Shown piece by piece: positions 2,902-14,985 of a stretch of 64,000 nucleotides of DNA. The notes under the pieces are model-generated. The model was not told the origin of the DNA. It did not search any database and saw only the letters and a program-made list of their open reading frames with translations. This DNA is from a virus. The position numbers and the translations under genes are program-made. Location of the stretch: the IMG/VR virus record IMGVR_UViG_3300031972_002446, positions 64,001 through 128,000 of that record; one strand, written 5' to 3'. Each line of letters begins with the position of its first letter. Position 1 is the stretch's first letter.

Positions 2902-2943
2902 AGTATATCATATATATCGTCACTGTCAACAGTTAATCTTTAG
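2902..2943 (-). promoter_or_regulatory. nested sigma70 + sigma28-like promoter
   Basis: CTAAAGattaactgTTGACAgtgaCGATAtatatgaTATACT. Confidence 0.8.
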
Positions 2944-2988
2944 CATAATTGAGAAAAAAATAACATAATCAGCCCGGCCTGATTTTAT

Positions 2989-3468
2989 TTAAATATAAGG
3001 AATGCCTAAATCTTTTTCACATAATTCAGGCATTTTCCTATAAGCACATTGATCTTTCATATAAGAGTACACGCCAATACATTTAGAGATTGGAGTTTCA
3101 TTCTTAATACTTCGAATGATATGTTTAACAGTATCCCCAGAGCATATTAAATCATCAATAATAATATATCGTTTACTACTTGGGCCTTCTACTATAAAGT
3201 CACTATATCCATCTTTTTTCTTACGAATAACAATTATATTTTTTTTGAGCAATTCAGCAATCTGTGGCACAACCATTAAACCACTCGTACCACAACATGC
3301 TATAGCATCGTATCCAATATTTAATTTATTCAAATAAGAATAGGTAGTCATAATTATTTTATTACGATATTTATGATTTAAGATACGGCTAGTATGAGAT
3401 GCTCCTTGTATAATACTGCCATCATCATTACGTCTGAACTCGTCAAGTTCTTGCATTAAAATATTCAT
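2989..3468 (-). CDS. type I phosphoribosyltransferase-fold protein
   Basis: PRPP-binding loop IIIDDLICSGDT; upstream G.SG and VIRK motifs. Confidence 0.8.
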   Translation of the reverse strand: MNILMQELDEFRRNDDGSIIQGASHTSRILNHKYRNKIIMTTYSYLNKLNIGYDAIACCGTSGLMVVPQIAELLKKNIIVIRKKKDGYSDFIVEGPSSKRYIIIDDLICSGDTVKHIIRSIKNETPISKCIGVYSYMKDQCAYRKMPELCEKDLGIPYI

Positions 3469-3478
3469 AATTAAAAAA

Positions 3479-3552
3479 GACTAATGGCCTGATTCGAACA
3501 GACTAAATTGATAACTAGATTTATATGTGTGTCCCACCACACCGCATTAGTC
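3479..3552 (-). ncRNA. tRNA-like element with degenerate anticodon arm
   Basis: 8-bp acceptor GACTAATG/CATTAGTC, D-arm GTGT-GGTGGG-ACAC, T-arm GTCTG-TTCGAAT-CAGGC; no canonical 5-bp/7-nt anticodon arm. Confidence 0.65.
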
Positions 3553-3567
3553 GAAAGGAGATCAATA

Positions 3568-3738
3568 CTATATCTCATCAATAAGTTCAATAGGTTCTTG
3601 GTAGAGGTAGTTGCACGTTACATCTGTTTCAGCATTTTCATATTCATCATCTAAGTATGTTCCTTCTGTCATGAATTCACTATAATCAACGCTATTATCA
3701 GTAAGATCATCAATATATTCCCATTTATGATTATCCAT
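3568..3738 (-). CDS. small acidic hypothetical protein (probable start MDNHKW)
   Basis: AGGAG RBS before the internal Met; sigma70 promoter TTGACA-N17-TAAAAT just upstream. Confidence 0.45.
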   Translation of the reverse strand: MDNHKWEYIDDLTDNSVDYSEFMTEGTYLDDEYENAETDVTCNYLYQEPIELIDEI

Positions 3739-3806
3739 ATATAATTCTCCTATCGTGAAACATTTAGTAATAGCATATTTTAACATATGCCACATCGCTT
3801 GTCAAG

Positions 3807-3879
3807 TACCCCCAGTAGGACTCGAACCTACAACATACGGTTTAAAAGACCGCTACTCTACCGATTGAGTTATAGGGGC
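3807..3879 (-). tRNA. tRNA-Lys(UUU)
   Basis: cloverleaf: acceptor GCCCCTA/TGGGGGT, anticodon arm GCGGT-CTTTTAA-ACCGT, T-loop TTCGAGT; CCA not encoded. Confidence 0.92.
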
Positions 3880-3883
3880 TGAG

Positions 3884-3959
3884 TAGGACGGGCAGGAGTC
3901 GAACCTACCTATGAACACCTTATAAGAGTGTCGGATGCAACCGGCTTACCTTCCGTCCC
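3884..3959 (-). tRNA. tRNA-Ile(UAU), atypical D-arm
   Basis: acceptor GGGACGG/CCGTCCT, anticodon arm ACACT-CTTATAA-GGTGT, T-arm GTAGG-TTCGACT-CCTGC; A at position 8 and weak D-stem. Confidence 0.75.
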
Positions 3960-4121
3960 TTATGAGTATTCTGTTATTGCTCTTCTCCGAATATCCATCC
4001 GGGTGCGAACTCTACGAGGCCGGTTATCATGATTACCAGAGCCAGAACGATGAATGTTGTGTCCACGAGACATCTCCCAAGATTTTTTAGTTGAAACTTT
4101 TACTGATCCATACTTACTCAT
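3960..4121 (-). CDS. small basic protein (53 aa, not in ORF track)
   Basis: MSKYGSVKVSTKKSWEMSRGHNIHRSGSGNHDNRPRRVRTRMDIRRRAITEYS; ATG overlaps the stop of the upstream gene; stop abuts the tRNA-Ile 5' end. Confidence 0.6.
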   Translation of the reverse strand: MSKYGSVKVSTKKSWEMSRGHNIHRSGSGNHDNRPRRVRTRMDIRRRAITEYS

Positions 4122-4417
4122 AGTTTATCCCTTAATAAGTCTTGAAGAAATTCTTTAGCAACATTATCAGGATCTTCTTCTACATTCACATCACACTCAT
4201 CTAATGCACCATCGAAAGAGTCTCTGTATGCTACTCCTAAATCCTCTAAGATATAATCGTCTCGTTCGTTTTCTTCTAATTCTAAATATTCTGTTCCATT
4301 GATAATATGTTTATGTGATTCATTTTCAATATAATCACCAATCCATTGGAATCTAATACTTTCAGGATCAGCCTCAACCCAACCATTAAATGTTATAATA
4401 ATTTTTTTATTACTCAT
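4118..4417 (-). CDS. acidic hypothetical protein (probable start MSNKKII)
   Basis: ORF track 4118..4444; GGAG RBS before the internal Met. Confidence 0.6.
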   Translation of the reverse strand: MSNKKIIITFNGWVEADPESIRFQWIGDYIENESHKHIINGTEYLELEENERDDYILEDLGVAYRDSFDGALDECDVNVEEDPDNVAKEFLQDLLRDKL

Positions 4418-4532
4418 TAGTAAGTTTCTCCACAAGTAAATCACAAATCATATCAATAGTAGAAGCATCACTACGACCATCAAGAATAGCCCTAATGTCT
4501 TCCTGCATTTGTTCACACAACTCGTTCATCAT
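4410..4532 (-). CDS. small hypothetical protein (40 aa)
   Basis: MMNELCEQMQEDIRAILDGRS...; translationally coupled (ATGA overlap) to its upstream neighbour. Confidence 0.45.
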   Translation of the reverse strand: MMNELCEQMQEDIRAILDGRSDASTIDMICDLLVEKLTNE

Positions 4533-12990: not shown

Positions 12991-13158
12991 TTTATTCCTC
13001 AATGTGTGAAAGTCTGAAAGGTATCATAACATGTTGGGCTACCTTTTGTCTAGCCTCAGTTTCTGACATCGCCCCAACTTCTCCGATTCTATTTCCTTGG
13101 GTATCATAGACAACCCAAACATTTTTTCTAACTTCTGGCATGATGCAATTATTGTTAC

Positions 13159-13323
13159 TCATCGACTAACCTCGTATTCTTCTGTGATAATTTCTGTATG
13201 CTCTCCACACGCTGGGCAGATGTCTGAGCAGTTGTCTGAAACATACTCACCACAGCAATCTGTGATATACATTGTAGTTACTTGGAATAATTCTTCAACT
13301 TGTTTTTTATCAAATGTTTTCAT
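13159..13323 (-). CDS. small Zn-ribbon protein (54 aa, not in ORF track)
   Basis: TDCCG...DICPACGEH; lies directly downstream of promoter 13361-13401. Confidence 0.65.
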   Translation of the reverse strand: MKTFDKKQVEELFQVTTMYITDCCGEYVSDNCSDICPACGEHTEIITEEYEVSR

Positions 13324-13360
13324 TTTCTTTTCTTTCTAATCTGTTACTTGTTATATCCTA

Positions 13361-13401
13361 AGTATATATACTATATCGGAATTTGTCAAGCATTAATTTA
13401 G
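13361..13401 (-). promoter_or_regulatory. nested sigma70 + sigma28-like promoter
   Basis: CTAAATtaatgcTTGACAaattcCGATAtagtataTATACT. Confidence 0.75.
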
Positions 13402-13425
13402 AAATATTTTTATTATTTTTCTGTG

Positions 13426-13472
13426 TGCAAATATCATGCCAAAAATTTTTTTTGTTTGGCACATCGTTTGCT
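13426..13472. promoter_or_regulatory. back-to-back pair of sigma54 (-24/-12) consensus sites
   Basis: minus TGGCATGATATTTGCA (13426-13441) and plus TGGCACATCGTTTGCT (13457-13472). Confidence 0.65.
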
Positions 13473-14046
13473 GTAAGTTTTTTATCGTAACGCGGCCCGG
13501 CTCGTTACGTGATTTTAATAAGCCTCTTCGGGTGTCCAATATATTTCTTCAAACAAGTCCACACCAGTTACGTCACACCAATCAAGAGGGTGTGAGTTGT
13601 TCTCGTCACAAGGCTCAACACAACCTTCCGATTCCAGGGCAGCAATTAAAAGTTGCATATCGATGTTAAACATATCAGTTCTCCGTGGTAAGTGTTATAT
13701 GTCAAGTATATACATACTATATTTATTGTCAAGTACAATCTTTATTTTTTTTCGTAGATTGTATCAAGATAAATTTCATCAGCAGTCATAACATATCCGT
13801 ACTCACAATTAGGGGTATACACCCCAAAATATACCTTACCATTATCATACCCTTCGAACCCTACCATGATTCCAAATATAGTGTAGATTGTCAACATTGT
13901 TTTTCTCCGTGGGTTATTCTTTCCTATACTTTATATATCGACAACATACAGTAGAAACTTAACAGAAATTTTATTTATTTATTTATTATTTTTTTAACCA
14001 AACCCGGCGGCACTCTTTGTGCCAAAAATCTAATAATCTACCATAT

Positions 14047-14370
14047 TTATTCTTCTATAAAGGGTGATTCCTCACGATCCTGTAAAAATTCATACTGACT
14101 CTTTAATGCCTCGACACGTTCAGCACTTCCCGGTTTACCTATAGGTTTAGACATATGATCCACACCACCAACTACGCGAGGGTTTGCCTTTGTATGTCGT
14201 TTTCTGAAATGTTTACGACTAAACTTGACTACCTTTTCACCATCAATAGTACCTCCATCAGCAGCAGACTTCTGACAAGGGATAGCAATTCCCTGCCAAA
14301 TATTTTCACATTCGTCCCAAGCGTCTGATAAGATTTGATACTTTTTCATTAATTTTTCTGTACTACTCAT
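14047..14370 (-). CDS. hypothetical protein
   Basis: ORF coupled to the upstream gene; C-terminal PGS.ERV.AL..QY...E.PF. Confidence 0.6.
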   Translation of the reverse strand: MSSTEKLMKKYQILSDAWDECENIWQGIAIPCQKSAADGGTIDGEKVVKFSRKHFRKRHTKANPRVVGGVDHMSKPIGKPGSAERVEALKSQYEFLQDREESPFIEE

Positions 14371-14599
14371 TATAAAAATTCCTACAGTAAAGTATATTCT
14401 GTGCTACTCTAATTCCCTCGTAATCTTCTGGTCGACATTCTTGACAAGCCACCAAATAGCATTGTAATTTAGGCGTGTCAAATTTGTCAAGTACTTTGTA
14501 AAGGTACTCATATAAAGATGTTGATTTGTATTCATTCATTTTTTGCATCATCCTCAAATATAGGGTCGCCGTATTCATCGACTGGTATTCCGTCTTCAT
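14363..14599 (-). CDS. hypothetical protein, probably leaderless
   Basis: TTGACG-N16-TATATT promoter a few nt upstream of the ATG. Confidence 0.5.
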   Translation of the reverse strand: MKTEYQSMNTATLYLRMMQKMNEYKSTSLYEYLYKVLDKFDTPKLQCYLVACQECRPEDYEGIRVAQNILYCRNFYNE

Positions 14600-14726
14600 T
14601 CATAAATATATCACCATTTCGCAGACCGTCAATAGTGATTTCTAATTTTTCTTGCTCACTAAACATATAGCACCTTTTAATATTTTTTCAAAGTGTACCA
14701 AAATTTTTCCGTCTATGCAATCCGCT

Positions 14727-14915
14727 TTATGCGGCCCCGTAAAAATCGAGACCAGCCTGAAAGTGTACCGCTTCAGAATCATCATAATCGATTCTATCTT
14801 CGATAACTTCGCAATGCTCAAGGCACGTTGGGCAAAGATCGGCATCGGAGTGAACCGAAGCACCACAGCAATCAGAGGAGTAAACTATTTCGAAATTTTT
14901 TGAAGTGTTTAACAT
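14727..14915 (-). CDS. small Zn-ribbon protein (probable start MLNTSK)
   Basis: SDCCG...DLCPTCLEHC; AAGGA RBS; promoter at 14950-14985. Confidence 0.65.
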   Translation of the reverse strand: MLNTSKNFEIVYSSDCCGASVHSDADLCPTCLEHCEVIEDRIDYDDSEAVHFQAGLDFYGAA

Positions 14916-14949
14916 TTTTTTTATCCTTTGTTTAATGTTCTTTTTAGTA

Positions 14950-14985
14950 TATCGGAATTTTAACATACTAAACTTTAATTTGCAA
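14950..14985 (-). promoter_or_regulatory. nested sigma70 + sigma28-like promoter
   Basis: TTGCAAaTTAAAGtttagtatgtTAAAATtcCGATA. Confidence 0.65.

Follow-up and report, generated by a model that had tools for sequence, protein, structure and literature searches.

The early region of the phage record

The stretch of DNA analyzed here (the window; ~33% GC) is 64,000 nucleotides (nt) long and corresponds to bases 64001-128000 of the 165,940-bp IMG/VR seawater virus record IMGVR_UViG_3300031972_002446, to which we assigned the genome label G000. The minus strand of the window is the early strand, and its block between 1 and 15 kb holds many short genes, three tRNAs, and dense promoters. A plus-strand block, which contains a sigma-like gene (23749-24387), begins after a perfect sigma-70 promoter at 16932, while the virion genes in the window include those for terminase and a 4205-aa tape-measure protein. 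A preliminary reading of the bare sequence (hereafter the original prediction) had described about 15 minus-strand copies of STAAAG...CGATA in the early region, most of them overlapping sigma-70 promoters, and had proposed that they represent a second, FliA/SigD-like type of promoter. This pair of boxes, referred to below as the element (box 1, TAAAG; box 2, CGATA), is the subject of the present analysis.

Searches against cultured phages by megablast and tblastn found no close cultured relative, and TerL is ~25% identical to its counterparts in Bacillus Slash-type and C. difficile phiCD211-type phages. IMG/VR contains >595 contigs with a TerL that is 68-85% identical, several of which are 110-225 kb long. 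Seawater metagenomes contain the window stretch at 99% of sampled words, and relatives were found from lakes. Our literature searches returned no description of this phage family. The family relatives cited below are G001, G003-G006, and contigs whose labels begin with L.

A two-box element with its own spacing

Throughout the family, the element exists as a pair of boxes with a locked orientation and a geometry of its own, which is kept in at least four registers relative to the TTGACA/TATAAT hexamers of sigma-70 promoters. In the window, all 15 copies read on the minus strand as originally described (Table 1), four of them being degenerate: those listed at 4575 (CTATAG, gap 16, CcCGATA), 13361 (CTAAAT), 13936 (TTAAG), and 14950 (TTAAAG). 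Enrichment over shuffled sequence, upon which the original prediction had staked the pattern, was pronounced, as the window contains 14 matches to TAAAG-N15-19-CGATA, compared with 0.93 expected and a largest shuffle value of 3, and ten of the 14 are on the minus strand between 2.9 and 15 kb. When gaps were tabulated without any spacing assumption on the minus strand of the entire 166-kb genome, 8 box pairs fell at gap 17 and 9 at gap 18 over a background of ~0.5 per other gap. The histogram peaks solely at the spacing claimed for the individual copies, which was 17-18 nt with a single 16 (the copy at 4575), and no gap peak was found genome-wide for the plus strand or for the reversed box order. 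Four plus-strand matches to CGATA-N16-TAAAG were unrelated in sequence and were set aside as chance. The same single-strand 17/18 peak was present in the four relatives examined in full, and strand-biased pattern matches were present in 9/9 large relatives (TerL 68-85% identical).

A two-block weight matrix covering five genomes, which are also the source of the site counts that follow, refined the element to cT(A/C)AAG-N15/16-GnCGATA. It matched 89 sites in sense and 2 in antisense orientation, the former on the early strand and always pointing to the downstream gene. Over the 89 sites, the counts for box 1 were c 47, T 86, A/C 59/30, A 84, A 89, and G 88, and those for box 2 were G 82 and then C 88, G 89, A 89, T 89, and A 87. 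The G two bases before CGATA (82/89) had escaped the original prediction; the base between it and CGATA is C in 40 copies, A in 25, T in 24, and G in none, and a final A follows CGATA in 43. The spacer measures 15 nt at 44 sites and 16 nt at 43, and a 14-nt spacer never occurs among the high-scoring sites. The centers of the two boxes lie ~23 bp apart, as in a sigma-70 promoter, and CGATA is mostly 20-60 nt from the next start codon with a ribosome site. We found no fourth promoter class on the early strand beyond the TTGACA type, the element, and GGTGTA (see below).

We assigned the 89 copies to classes by their position relative to the best sigma-70 promoter. In class A (56 copies), box 1 precedes TTGACA by 5-9 nt and box 2 is found 3-7 nt into the spacer, while in class B (5 copies), box 1 is 2-3 nt upstream of TTGACA and box 2 comes just before the -10. 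In class C (12 copies), box 1 is located one base after TTGACA and GtCGATA directly after TATAAT, and in class D (3-4 copies) the entire element lies upstream, with CGATA abutting the -35. Approximately 12/89 copies lack sigma-70 hexamers, and ~85% overlap a sigma-70 promoter. In the window, this overlap was somewhat less uniform than first stated: of thirteen copies said to coincide with a near-perfect sigma-70 promoter, twelve indeed have TTGACA-N16/17-TAnnnT, whereas the copy at 14950 has only the weaker TTGCAA-N17-TAAAAT. Across the classes, the position of the -35 relative to box 1 ranges from ~43 nt on the upstream side to 8 nt on the downstream side while the box-to-box gap stays at 17/18. 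This agrees with the sliding of TTGACA originally noticed in the window, which follows cTAAAG by 2-3 nt at 6701 and 7054 and mostly by 6-9 nt, and which precedes it at 9540, 12311, and 14950. Class A spacer sequences are unrelated, whereas classes B and C look like paralogous cassettes and are each to be counted as about one independent register. The element is found in ~75% of strong early promoters and, because about a quarter of these promoters lack it, it is not simply part of every promoter.

For an unbiased test of spacing in the five genomes, strong early-strand sigma-70 promoters were defined first and the boxes were then located without a gap constraint. The gap was 17/18 in 68/82 box pairs, while shuffles of box 2 gave this spacing in a mean of 21% and a maximum of 37% of pairs, and 0/20,000 shuffles reached the observed value. 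On the opposite strand, both boxes were present at 1/162 promoter-like sites. The proposal of two independently selected bipartite elements thus gained clear support.

The copies without sigma-70 hexamers (solo copies) are located 22-45 nt upstream of start codons with good ribosome sites. In the window, neither 4722 nor 13936 has sigma-70 hexamers, as the original prediction had noted; the former (4749-4722) lies 22 nt before an ATG with AAGGAGG, and the solo copies at G005 70580 and G003 18642 lie 27 and 39 nt before start codons. By alignment, G003 18642 is the orthologue of the degenerate window copy 13963-13936; GTCGATA and the downstream leader are identical between G000 and G003 and box 1 is kept, while about half of the 17-nt spacer has changed. 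Four RNA runs contain parts of the region only as contigs of 90-99% relatives, several of which run across promoters.

Table 1. Element copies, other promoters, sigma-factor genes, and further features. Positions are window coordinates unless a genome or contig is named.
Feature	Position	Strand	Class and details
Element TTAAAG-18-TcCGATA	14950..14978	-	Class C; box 1 inside spacer of weak TTGCAA 14985-14980 / TAAAAT 14962-14957
Degenerate solo TTAAG-17-GtCGATA	13936..13963	-	No sigma-70 hexamers; ~45 nt upstream of ATG; orthologous to canonical solo in G003
Element CTAAAT-17-TcCGATA	13374..13401	-	Class A; straddles TTGACA 13389-13384; -10 TATACT 13366-13361
Element CTAAAG-18-GtCGATA	12311..12339	-	Class C; TTGACA 12346-12341 followed by box 1 after 1 nt, TATAAT 12323-12318 followed immediately by box 2
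Element GTAAAG-17-GcCGATA	11697..11724	-	Class A; TTGACA 11711-11706, TATACT 11689-11684
Best copy, CTAAAGTTT-N12-GCCGATAA	10663..10690	-	Class A; TTGACA 10676-10671, TAGGAT 10653-10648
Element CTAAAG-18-GaCGATA	9540..9568	-	Class C; TTGACA 9575-9570, TATAAT 9553-9548
Element CTATAG-18-GaCGATA	8606..8634	-	Class A; TTGACA 8621-8616, TATACT 8599-8594
Element CTAAAG-17-GaCGATA	7479..7506	-	Class A; TTGACA 7493-7488, TATACT 7471-7466
Element CTAAAG-17-GtCGATA	7063..7090	-	Class B; -35 2 nt after box 1, box 2 3 nt before -10; TTGACA 7082-7077, TATACT 7059-7054
Element CTAAAG-18-GtCGATA	6710..6738	-	Class B; TTGACA 6729-6724, TATACT 6706-6701
Element CTCAAG-18-GaCGATA	5356..5384	-	Class A; TTGACA 5369-5364, TAGAAT 5347-5342
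Solo GTAAAG-17-GaCGATA	4722..4749	-	No sigma-70 hexamers; ATG at 4699, strong ribosome site
Weak copy CTATAG-16-CcCGATA	4585..4611	-	Over TTGACG 4603-4598 / TAGAAT 4580-4575
Element CTAAAG-18-GaCGATA	2915..2943	-	Class A; TTGACA 2929-2924, TATACT 2907-2902; predicted to drive DUF932 gene 2862-1915
Perfect TTGACA-17-TATAAT without element (contrast)	6404..6432	-	
Other sigma-70 promoters without element	9217-9189, 13732-13705, 3805-3777	-	
Other sigma-70 promoter without element	16932-16960	+	
sig1, phage sigma, 212 aa	23749..24387	+	Region 2 only; four invariant Cys (four-Cys insertion)
GGTGTAa/t one-box motif	23555..23561	+	Upstream of sig1
GGTGTAt, other copies	17683, 20859, 37424, 41109	+	
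GGTGTAt, other copies	genome 24-60 kb, e.g. G000 55989, 51284, 38249	-	
sig2, G000-like phage	L141:3511-4158	+	
sig2, G003	60949-61551		
sig2, G005	138559-139149 (L096:18559-19149)		
Tape-measure protein gene	41718-54335	+	4205 aa; PhageMin_Tail domain at residues 181-375
Homing-endonuclease-like open reading frame	15335-16840	-	501 aa; HNH_3 and weak GIY-YIG matches
tRNAs Lys-TTT, Ile-TAT, Arg-TCT	3806-3959 and 4854-4927	-	

Two phage sigma factors and a one-box motif

The sigma-like gene of the window, sig1, has ~1,800 homologues with four invariant cysteines. Its region 2 reached 24 bits in Pfam and stayed below the cut-off of the NCBIfam superfamily model. No region 4 match was found in sig1 or in the genome; the sole PDB match was region 2 of SigW (E = 0.39), and no FliA likeness was detected. 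Late-strand genes are preceded by the motif tGGTGTAt(a/t) at a 20-fold enrichment, and this motif also occurs before minus-strand middle genes and sig1. Among 76 gene-proximal copies from the five genomes, we found no upstream box, with positions -45 to -1 all <0.26 bits and all but one <0.14. GGTGTAt is likely to be a middle/late promoter class, and sig1 probably reads it, a pairing that we infer because a one-box class suits a sigma that has no usable region 4.

A second phage sigma, sig2, is encoded by a 186-215-aa early-strand open reading frame in G003-G006 and is matched by both a FliA/WhiG model and Sigma70_r4_2. It scored 46-57 bits against a sigma-70 superfamily cut-off of 42.9 and has 942 homologues. 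Aligned with E. coli RpoD, RpoH, and FliA and with a Silvanigrellaceae FliA, it has regions 2 and 4 and no region 3. sig2 is present in all five 100%-complete relatives, the three records without it are incomplete, and the element and sig2 co-occur in all complete genomes. A solo element precedes sig2 in the G000-like phage and in G001, and a class-A cassette precedes it in G003, while no element was found upstream of sig2 in G004-G006.

The G000 record is rated 100% complete, yet it is open: a transketolase-like gene is cut at its left end (genome 1-518) and a different gene at its right (165389-165940), and the two do not join. The apparent absence of sig2 from G000 was consequently dismissed as an assembly artefact, since the record ends do not join and the genes that flank sig2 map to both of them. 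Longer contigs with an identical 248-aa end protein carry a 215-aa Sigma70_r4 gene 6 kb further on (the L141 locus in Table 1) and, judging from these contigs, the G000-like phage has sig2 just past the record end. A 201,166-bp contig also carries proteins identical to those of G000, which suggests that ~35 kb of G000 may be missing.

In a computed alignment, the region 4.2 helix of sig2 reads (T/S)REAVRQ, compared with TRERIRQ in RpoD and ESRVSQ in FliA. BLAST placed sig2 closer to RpoD (5.6e-9) than to FliA (1.2e-6 and 3.8e-4), and a sig2 family profile searched against PDB matched RpoD/SigA/RpoS from 2e-6 and E. coli FliA at 3e-3. As far as these comparisons reach, sig2 is not a FliA derivative in the part predicted to read the -35. 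With an RpoD-like region 4.2, sig2 would be expected to favor a -35 box of the TTGA type. In G000 and its relatives, the early promoters most often have TATACT, not TATAAT, as their -10 hexamer (e.g. 2907-2902, 7471-7466, 8599-8594, and 11689-11684), and sig2, whose region 4.2 looks RpoD-like, might also read the TTGACA/TATACT promoters. A profile search of the phage genomes found no phage-encoded FliA, and none of the other early proteins was recognizable as a sigma, anti-sigma, or repressor.

A conserved ~95-aa protein with a stand-alone, sigma region-4-like helix-turn-helix (Sigma70_r4_2, E 1e-2 to 4e-4) is encoded on the minus strand at genome 27167-27262 and is a possible small regulator of transcription. 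Its orthologues are located at G004 25774, G005 103011, G006 142743, and G003 38705, and in each of the four genomes checked (G000, G004, G005, and G006) its gene immediately follows a class-A dual promoter. Among the other features of the window, the three tRNAs lie among the early promoters, with the strong sigma-70-only promoter at 3805-3777 directly downstream of tRNA-Lys. The homing-endonuclease-like open reading frame is located at the divergence point of the early and late strands, and the length of the tape-measure protein implies an exceptionally long tail.

Candidate readers of the element

The E. coli sigma-28 consensus is TAAAGTTT-n11-GCCGATAA (PMC2859248), and the P. aeruginosa fliC open complex contains (-36)TCTAAAG(-30) and (-15)GCCGATAA(-8), with GC as the extended -10 (PMC12784957). 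Every strongly conserved position of the element, 11 in total, coincides with the sigma-28 consensus (TAAAG / GCCGATAA). The FliA/SigD likeness that prompted the original prediction, with a spacing 1-2 nt longer, was thus supported in both boxes, including the near-invariant G two bases before CGATA. Class-3 flagellar promoters (sigma-28: FliA in E. coli and Pseudomonas, SigD in Bacillus, and WhiG in Streptomyces) share with the element the boxes, their order, and their orientation, i.e. (c)TAAAG/TCAAG followed by G-C-CGATA-A with an extended -10 G, as well as a position just upstream of genes. Unlike these promoters, the element has a spacer of 15-16 nt rather than 14, its second -10 base is C, A, or T but never G, its last -10 A is weak, and it occurs in a phage, mostly interleaved with sigma-70 promoters before early genes without assigned function and with no flagellar genes.

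The overlap of ~85% of the copies with a sigma-70 promoter could also be expected of an operator, at which a phage or host DNA-binding protein silences or activates early sigma-70 promoters at the early-to-middle switch. A protein bound to the element would occlude the promoter in classes A, B, and C, and small sigma-4-like helix-turn-helix proteins are encoded behind class-A promoters (e.g. G000 27167-27262). However, the site is asymmetric, and its two unlike boxes ~23 bp apart and its strict orientation (89 to 2) correspond to the geometry of a sigma rather than to that of a dimeric repressor. Moreover, class D elements lie wholly upstream of the -35, and solo copies argue against an operator because, without a promoter, it would have nothing to regulate. 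An operator would also leave the match to the sigma-28 consensus unexplained, and no early protein is recognizable as a repressor, so this alternative, which had been raised in the original prediction for a phage protein, appears improbable. The pattern might otherwise reflect mere shared descent of duplicated promoter cassettes whose boxes have no separate function. Copies of class C (TATAATGTCGATATAA), and likewise those of class B, closely resemble one another both within a genome and from genome to genome and may be paralogous cassettes, but in class A the flanking distances vary (5-9 and 3-7 nt) and the spacers are unrelated, while the gap is still 17/18. Furthermore, the four registers and the solo copies all keep an identical internal spacing, and the element is conserved where intergenic DNA is otherwise unalignable. 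Shared descent as the sole cause is hardly credible, as the unbiased spacing test comes close to refuting it. We regard the element as a probable independent promoter for some alternative holoenzyme.

The reading that we favor, with a rough probability of 0.45, is that the element is a second, sigma-28-class promoter interleaved with the early sigma-70 promoters and read by a FliA-type sigma of the host. Both the promoter function and the identity of the reading sigma are what we infer from sequence. We ranked host FliA first because a sigma-28 match at 11 positions is hard to explain without a sigma-28-type reader; with no phage FliA and an RpoD-type helix in sig2, a genuine sigma-28 would have to be that of the host. 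Host polymerase with the housekeeping sigma would use TTGACA/TATA(A/C)T, while polymerase carrying a sigma-28-type factor, most likely the host flagellar sigma, would use the TAAAG/CGATA boxes. For class A, the predicted alternative start is shifted ~13-15 nt upstream of the sigma-70 start, and for class C it is shifted ~8-10 nt downstream; either form of polymerase could launch the same early gene.

Several observations weigh against a host FliA as the reader. A FliA in the host is an assumption, and many low-GC marine plankton lineages have no flagella. Our literature searches found no phage regulon that is read by a host sigma-28 or composed of sigma-28-type promoters. Of the 89 copies, only 40 match GCCGATAA at its second base (C) and only 43 at its final A. 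There are two phage sigmas and only two phage-specific motif classes, and a host reader would leave sig2 without an assigned target; the element is also found before sig2 in two lineages, which would fit autoregulation. Lastly, the spacer of 15-16 nt is 1-2 nt longer than the canonical 14, which weakens membership in the sigma-28 class without excluding it, because spacer length is not conserved among sigma-28 promoters (PMC12784957).

Leads toward the host were divergent. Five metagenome-assembled genome bins with family contigs were scattered (unclassified, Rickettsiales, Flavobacteriales, Silvanigrellaceae, and SAR202), and among these a true FliA was found only in the Silvanigrellaceae bin. 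In 33 Silvanigrellaceae genomes, sigma-28-like patterns were no commoner than the control and mostly N14-15, with no clear preference for 15-16 nt. Leads toward Planctomycetota/Verrucomicrobiota consisted of a PSCyt1-DUF1549-DUF1553/DUF1501 operon, DUF1559-type genes in a relative, and weak sigma-family matches. The operon (genome 51.6-56 kb; L131:7662-11952, minus strand), ~8 kb ahead of the window, comprises genes for PSCyt1-DUF1549-DUF1553 (790 aa), a sulfotransferase, and DUF1501 (431 aa), of which the PSCyt1-DUF1549-DUF1553 and DUF1501 gene pair is typical of Planctomycetota and Verrucomicrobiota. It is a family trait, being present at 77-100% identity in >100 family contigs. As a host assignment, this planctomycete-type operon was rejected: its nearest homologues lie on phage-like or short contigs, and the SAR202 bin also has seven DUF1501 genes.

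The phage sigmas are the other candidate readers. sig1, which the original prediction had put forward as one option, is a conserved phage sigma with its gene near the early/late divergence point, but it has no detectable region 4 to read a -35 box and no FliA likeness. In addition, the element is absent from the late strand, and the one-box GGTGTAt before late genes and sig1 itself suits this sigma better, which makes sig1 a very improbable reader. It is doubtful, though far from fanciful, that the element is instead a promoter read by sig2, with its sigma-28 likeness due to convergence. Host sigma-70 would then fire the cassettes first, and sig2 would subsequently sustain the same genes and its own, e.g. 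after a sigma-70 shut-off. The presence of sig2 in all five 100%-complete relatives and the G000-like phage, its score above the superfamily cut-off, and its location on the early strand behind a solo element (G000-like phage and G001) or a class-A cassette (G003) are all consistent with such a role. It would also yield a tidy pairing of the two-box element with the two-domain sig2 and of the one-box GGTGTAt with sig1, which lacks region 4, and a short two-domain sigma would explain the rigid, non-canonical spacing. On the other hand, the region 4.2 helix of sig2 is of the RpoD/RpoS type (R-E-x-x-R-Q) and predicts a TTGA-type -35 rather than TAAAG. sig2 also lacks the sigma-28 region 2.4 signature (a by-eye mapping of contact residues on region 2 was judged too uncertain to use), and both BLAST and the PDB profile place RpoD/SigA/RpoS far above FliA (E = 2e-6 and 3e-3 in the latter). 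It would be a striking coincidence for an unrelated sigma to reach the sigma-28 consensus at 11 positions, and in G004-G006 sig2 has no upstream element.

Sigma-66/sigma-28 tandem promoters have been proposed in Chlamydia (PMC10597470), and sigma-70/sigma-38 dual-preference promoters are described in E. coli (bioRxiv 10.1101/2021.11.17.468920). In such tandem or overlapping bacterial promoters, as would be the case in the phage, two holoenzymes serve one gene from adjacent or overlapping sites. The phage arrangement differs in that it is systematic (~75% of strong early promoters), has at least four interleaved registers, and is conserved across a virus family. In the phage sigma cascades of SPO1 (gp28 and gp33/34) and T4 (gp55), the promoters specific to the phage stand apart from the early sigma-70 promoters and control later genes. 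The present family resembles these in having its own sigmas, sig1 and sig2, together with phage-specific promoter classes, of which GGTGTAt is reminiscent of the -10-only late/middle class of T4, but its element is nested inside early promoters. T4 middle promoters combine a MotA box with a sigma-70 -10 through sigma appropriation, the MotA box replacing the -35 in a fixed register to the -10. Both they and the cassettes described here are composites of a phage-specific box and host promoter parts, except that the element has two boxes of its own, whose position is free with respect to either hexamer.

In the textbook view, phage early promoters are strong and depend on the housekeeping sigma alone. 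In this family, about three quarters of the strong early promoters carry, inside or beside them, a second, independently spaced promoter-like element, which is kept in a very large uncultured family (>595 TerL relatives in IMG/VR). The systematic interleaving of sigma-28-class signals with sigma-70 promoters is, for phage early regions, a new arrangement of a known kind of promoter. If a phage sigma reads the element, one cassette would be passed from a host sigma to a phage sigma, which would be a new design, and a sigma with an RpoD-like region 4 would have converged upon the sigma-28 consensus. If host sigma-28 reads it, the element would provide a sequence-only predictor of the host, namely a flagellated one with a FliA that tolerates a spacer of 15-16 nt. 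Under both readings, the cassettes amount to a naturally occurring collection of compact promoters with two inputs. Our tentative view is that a cosmopolitan family of 150-225-kb aquatic phages has the host flagellar sigma-28 promoter hard-wired into the majority of its sigma-70 early promoters. If true, this would be the first case of a host flagellar sigma reading the early regulon of a phage; the start-up of infection would be driven by whichever holoenzyme dominates in the infected cell, and take-over would be coupled to, or insured against, the motile/swarmer state of the host.

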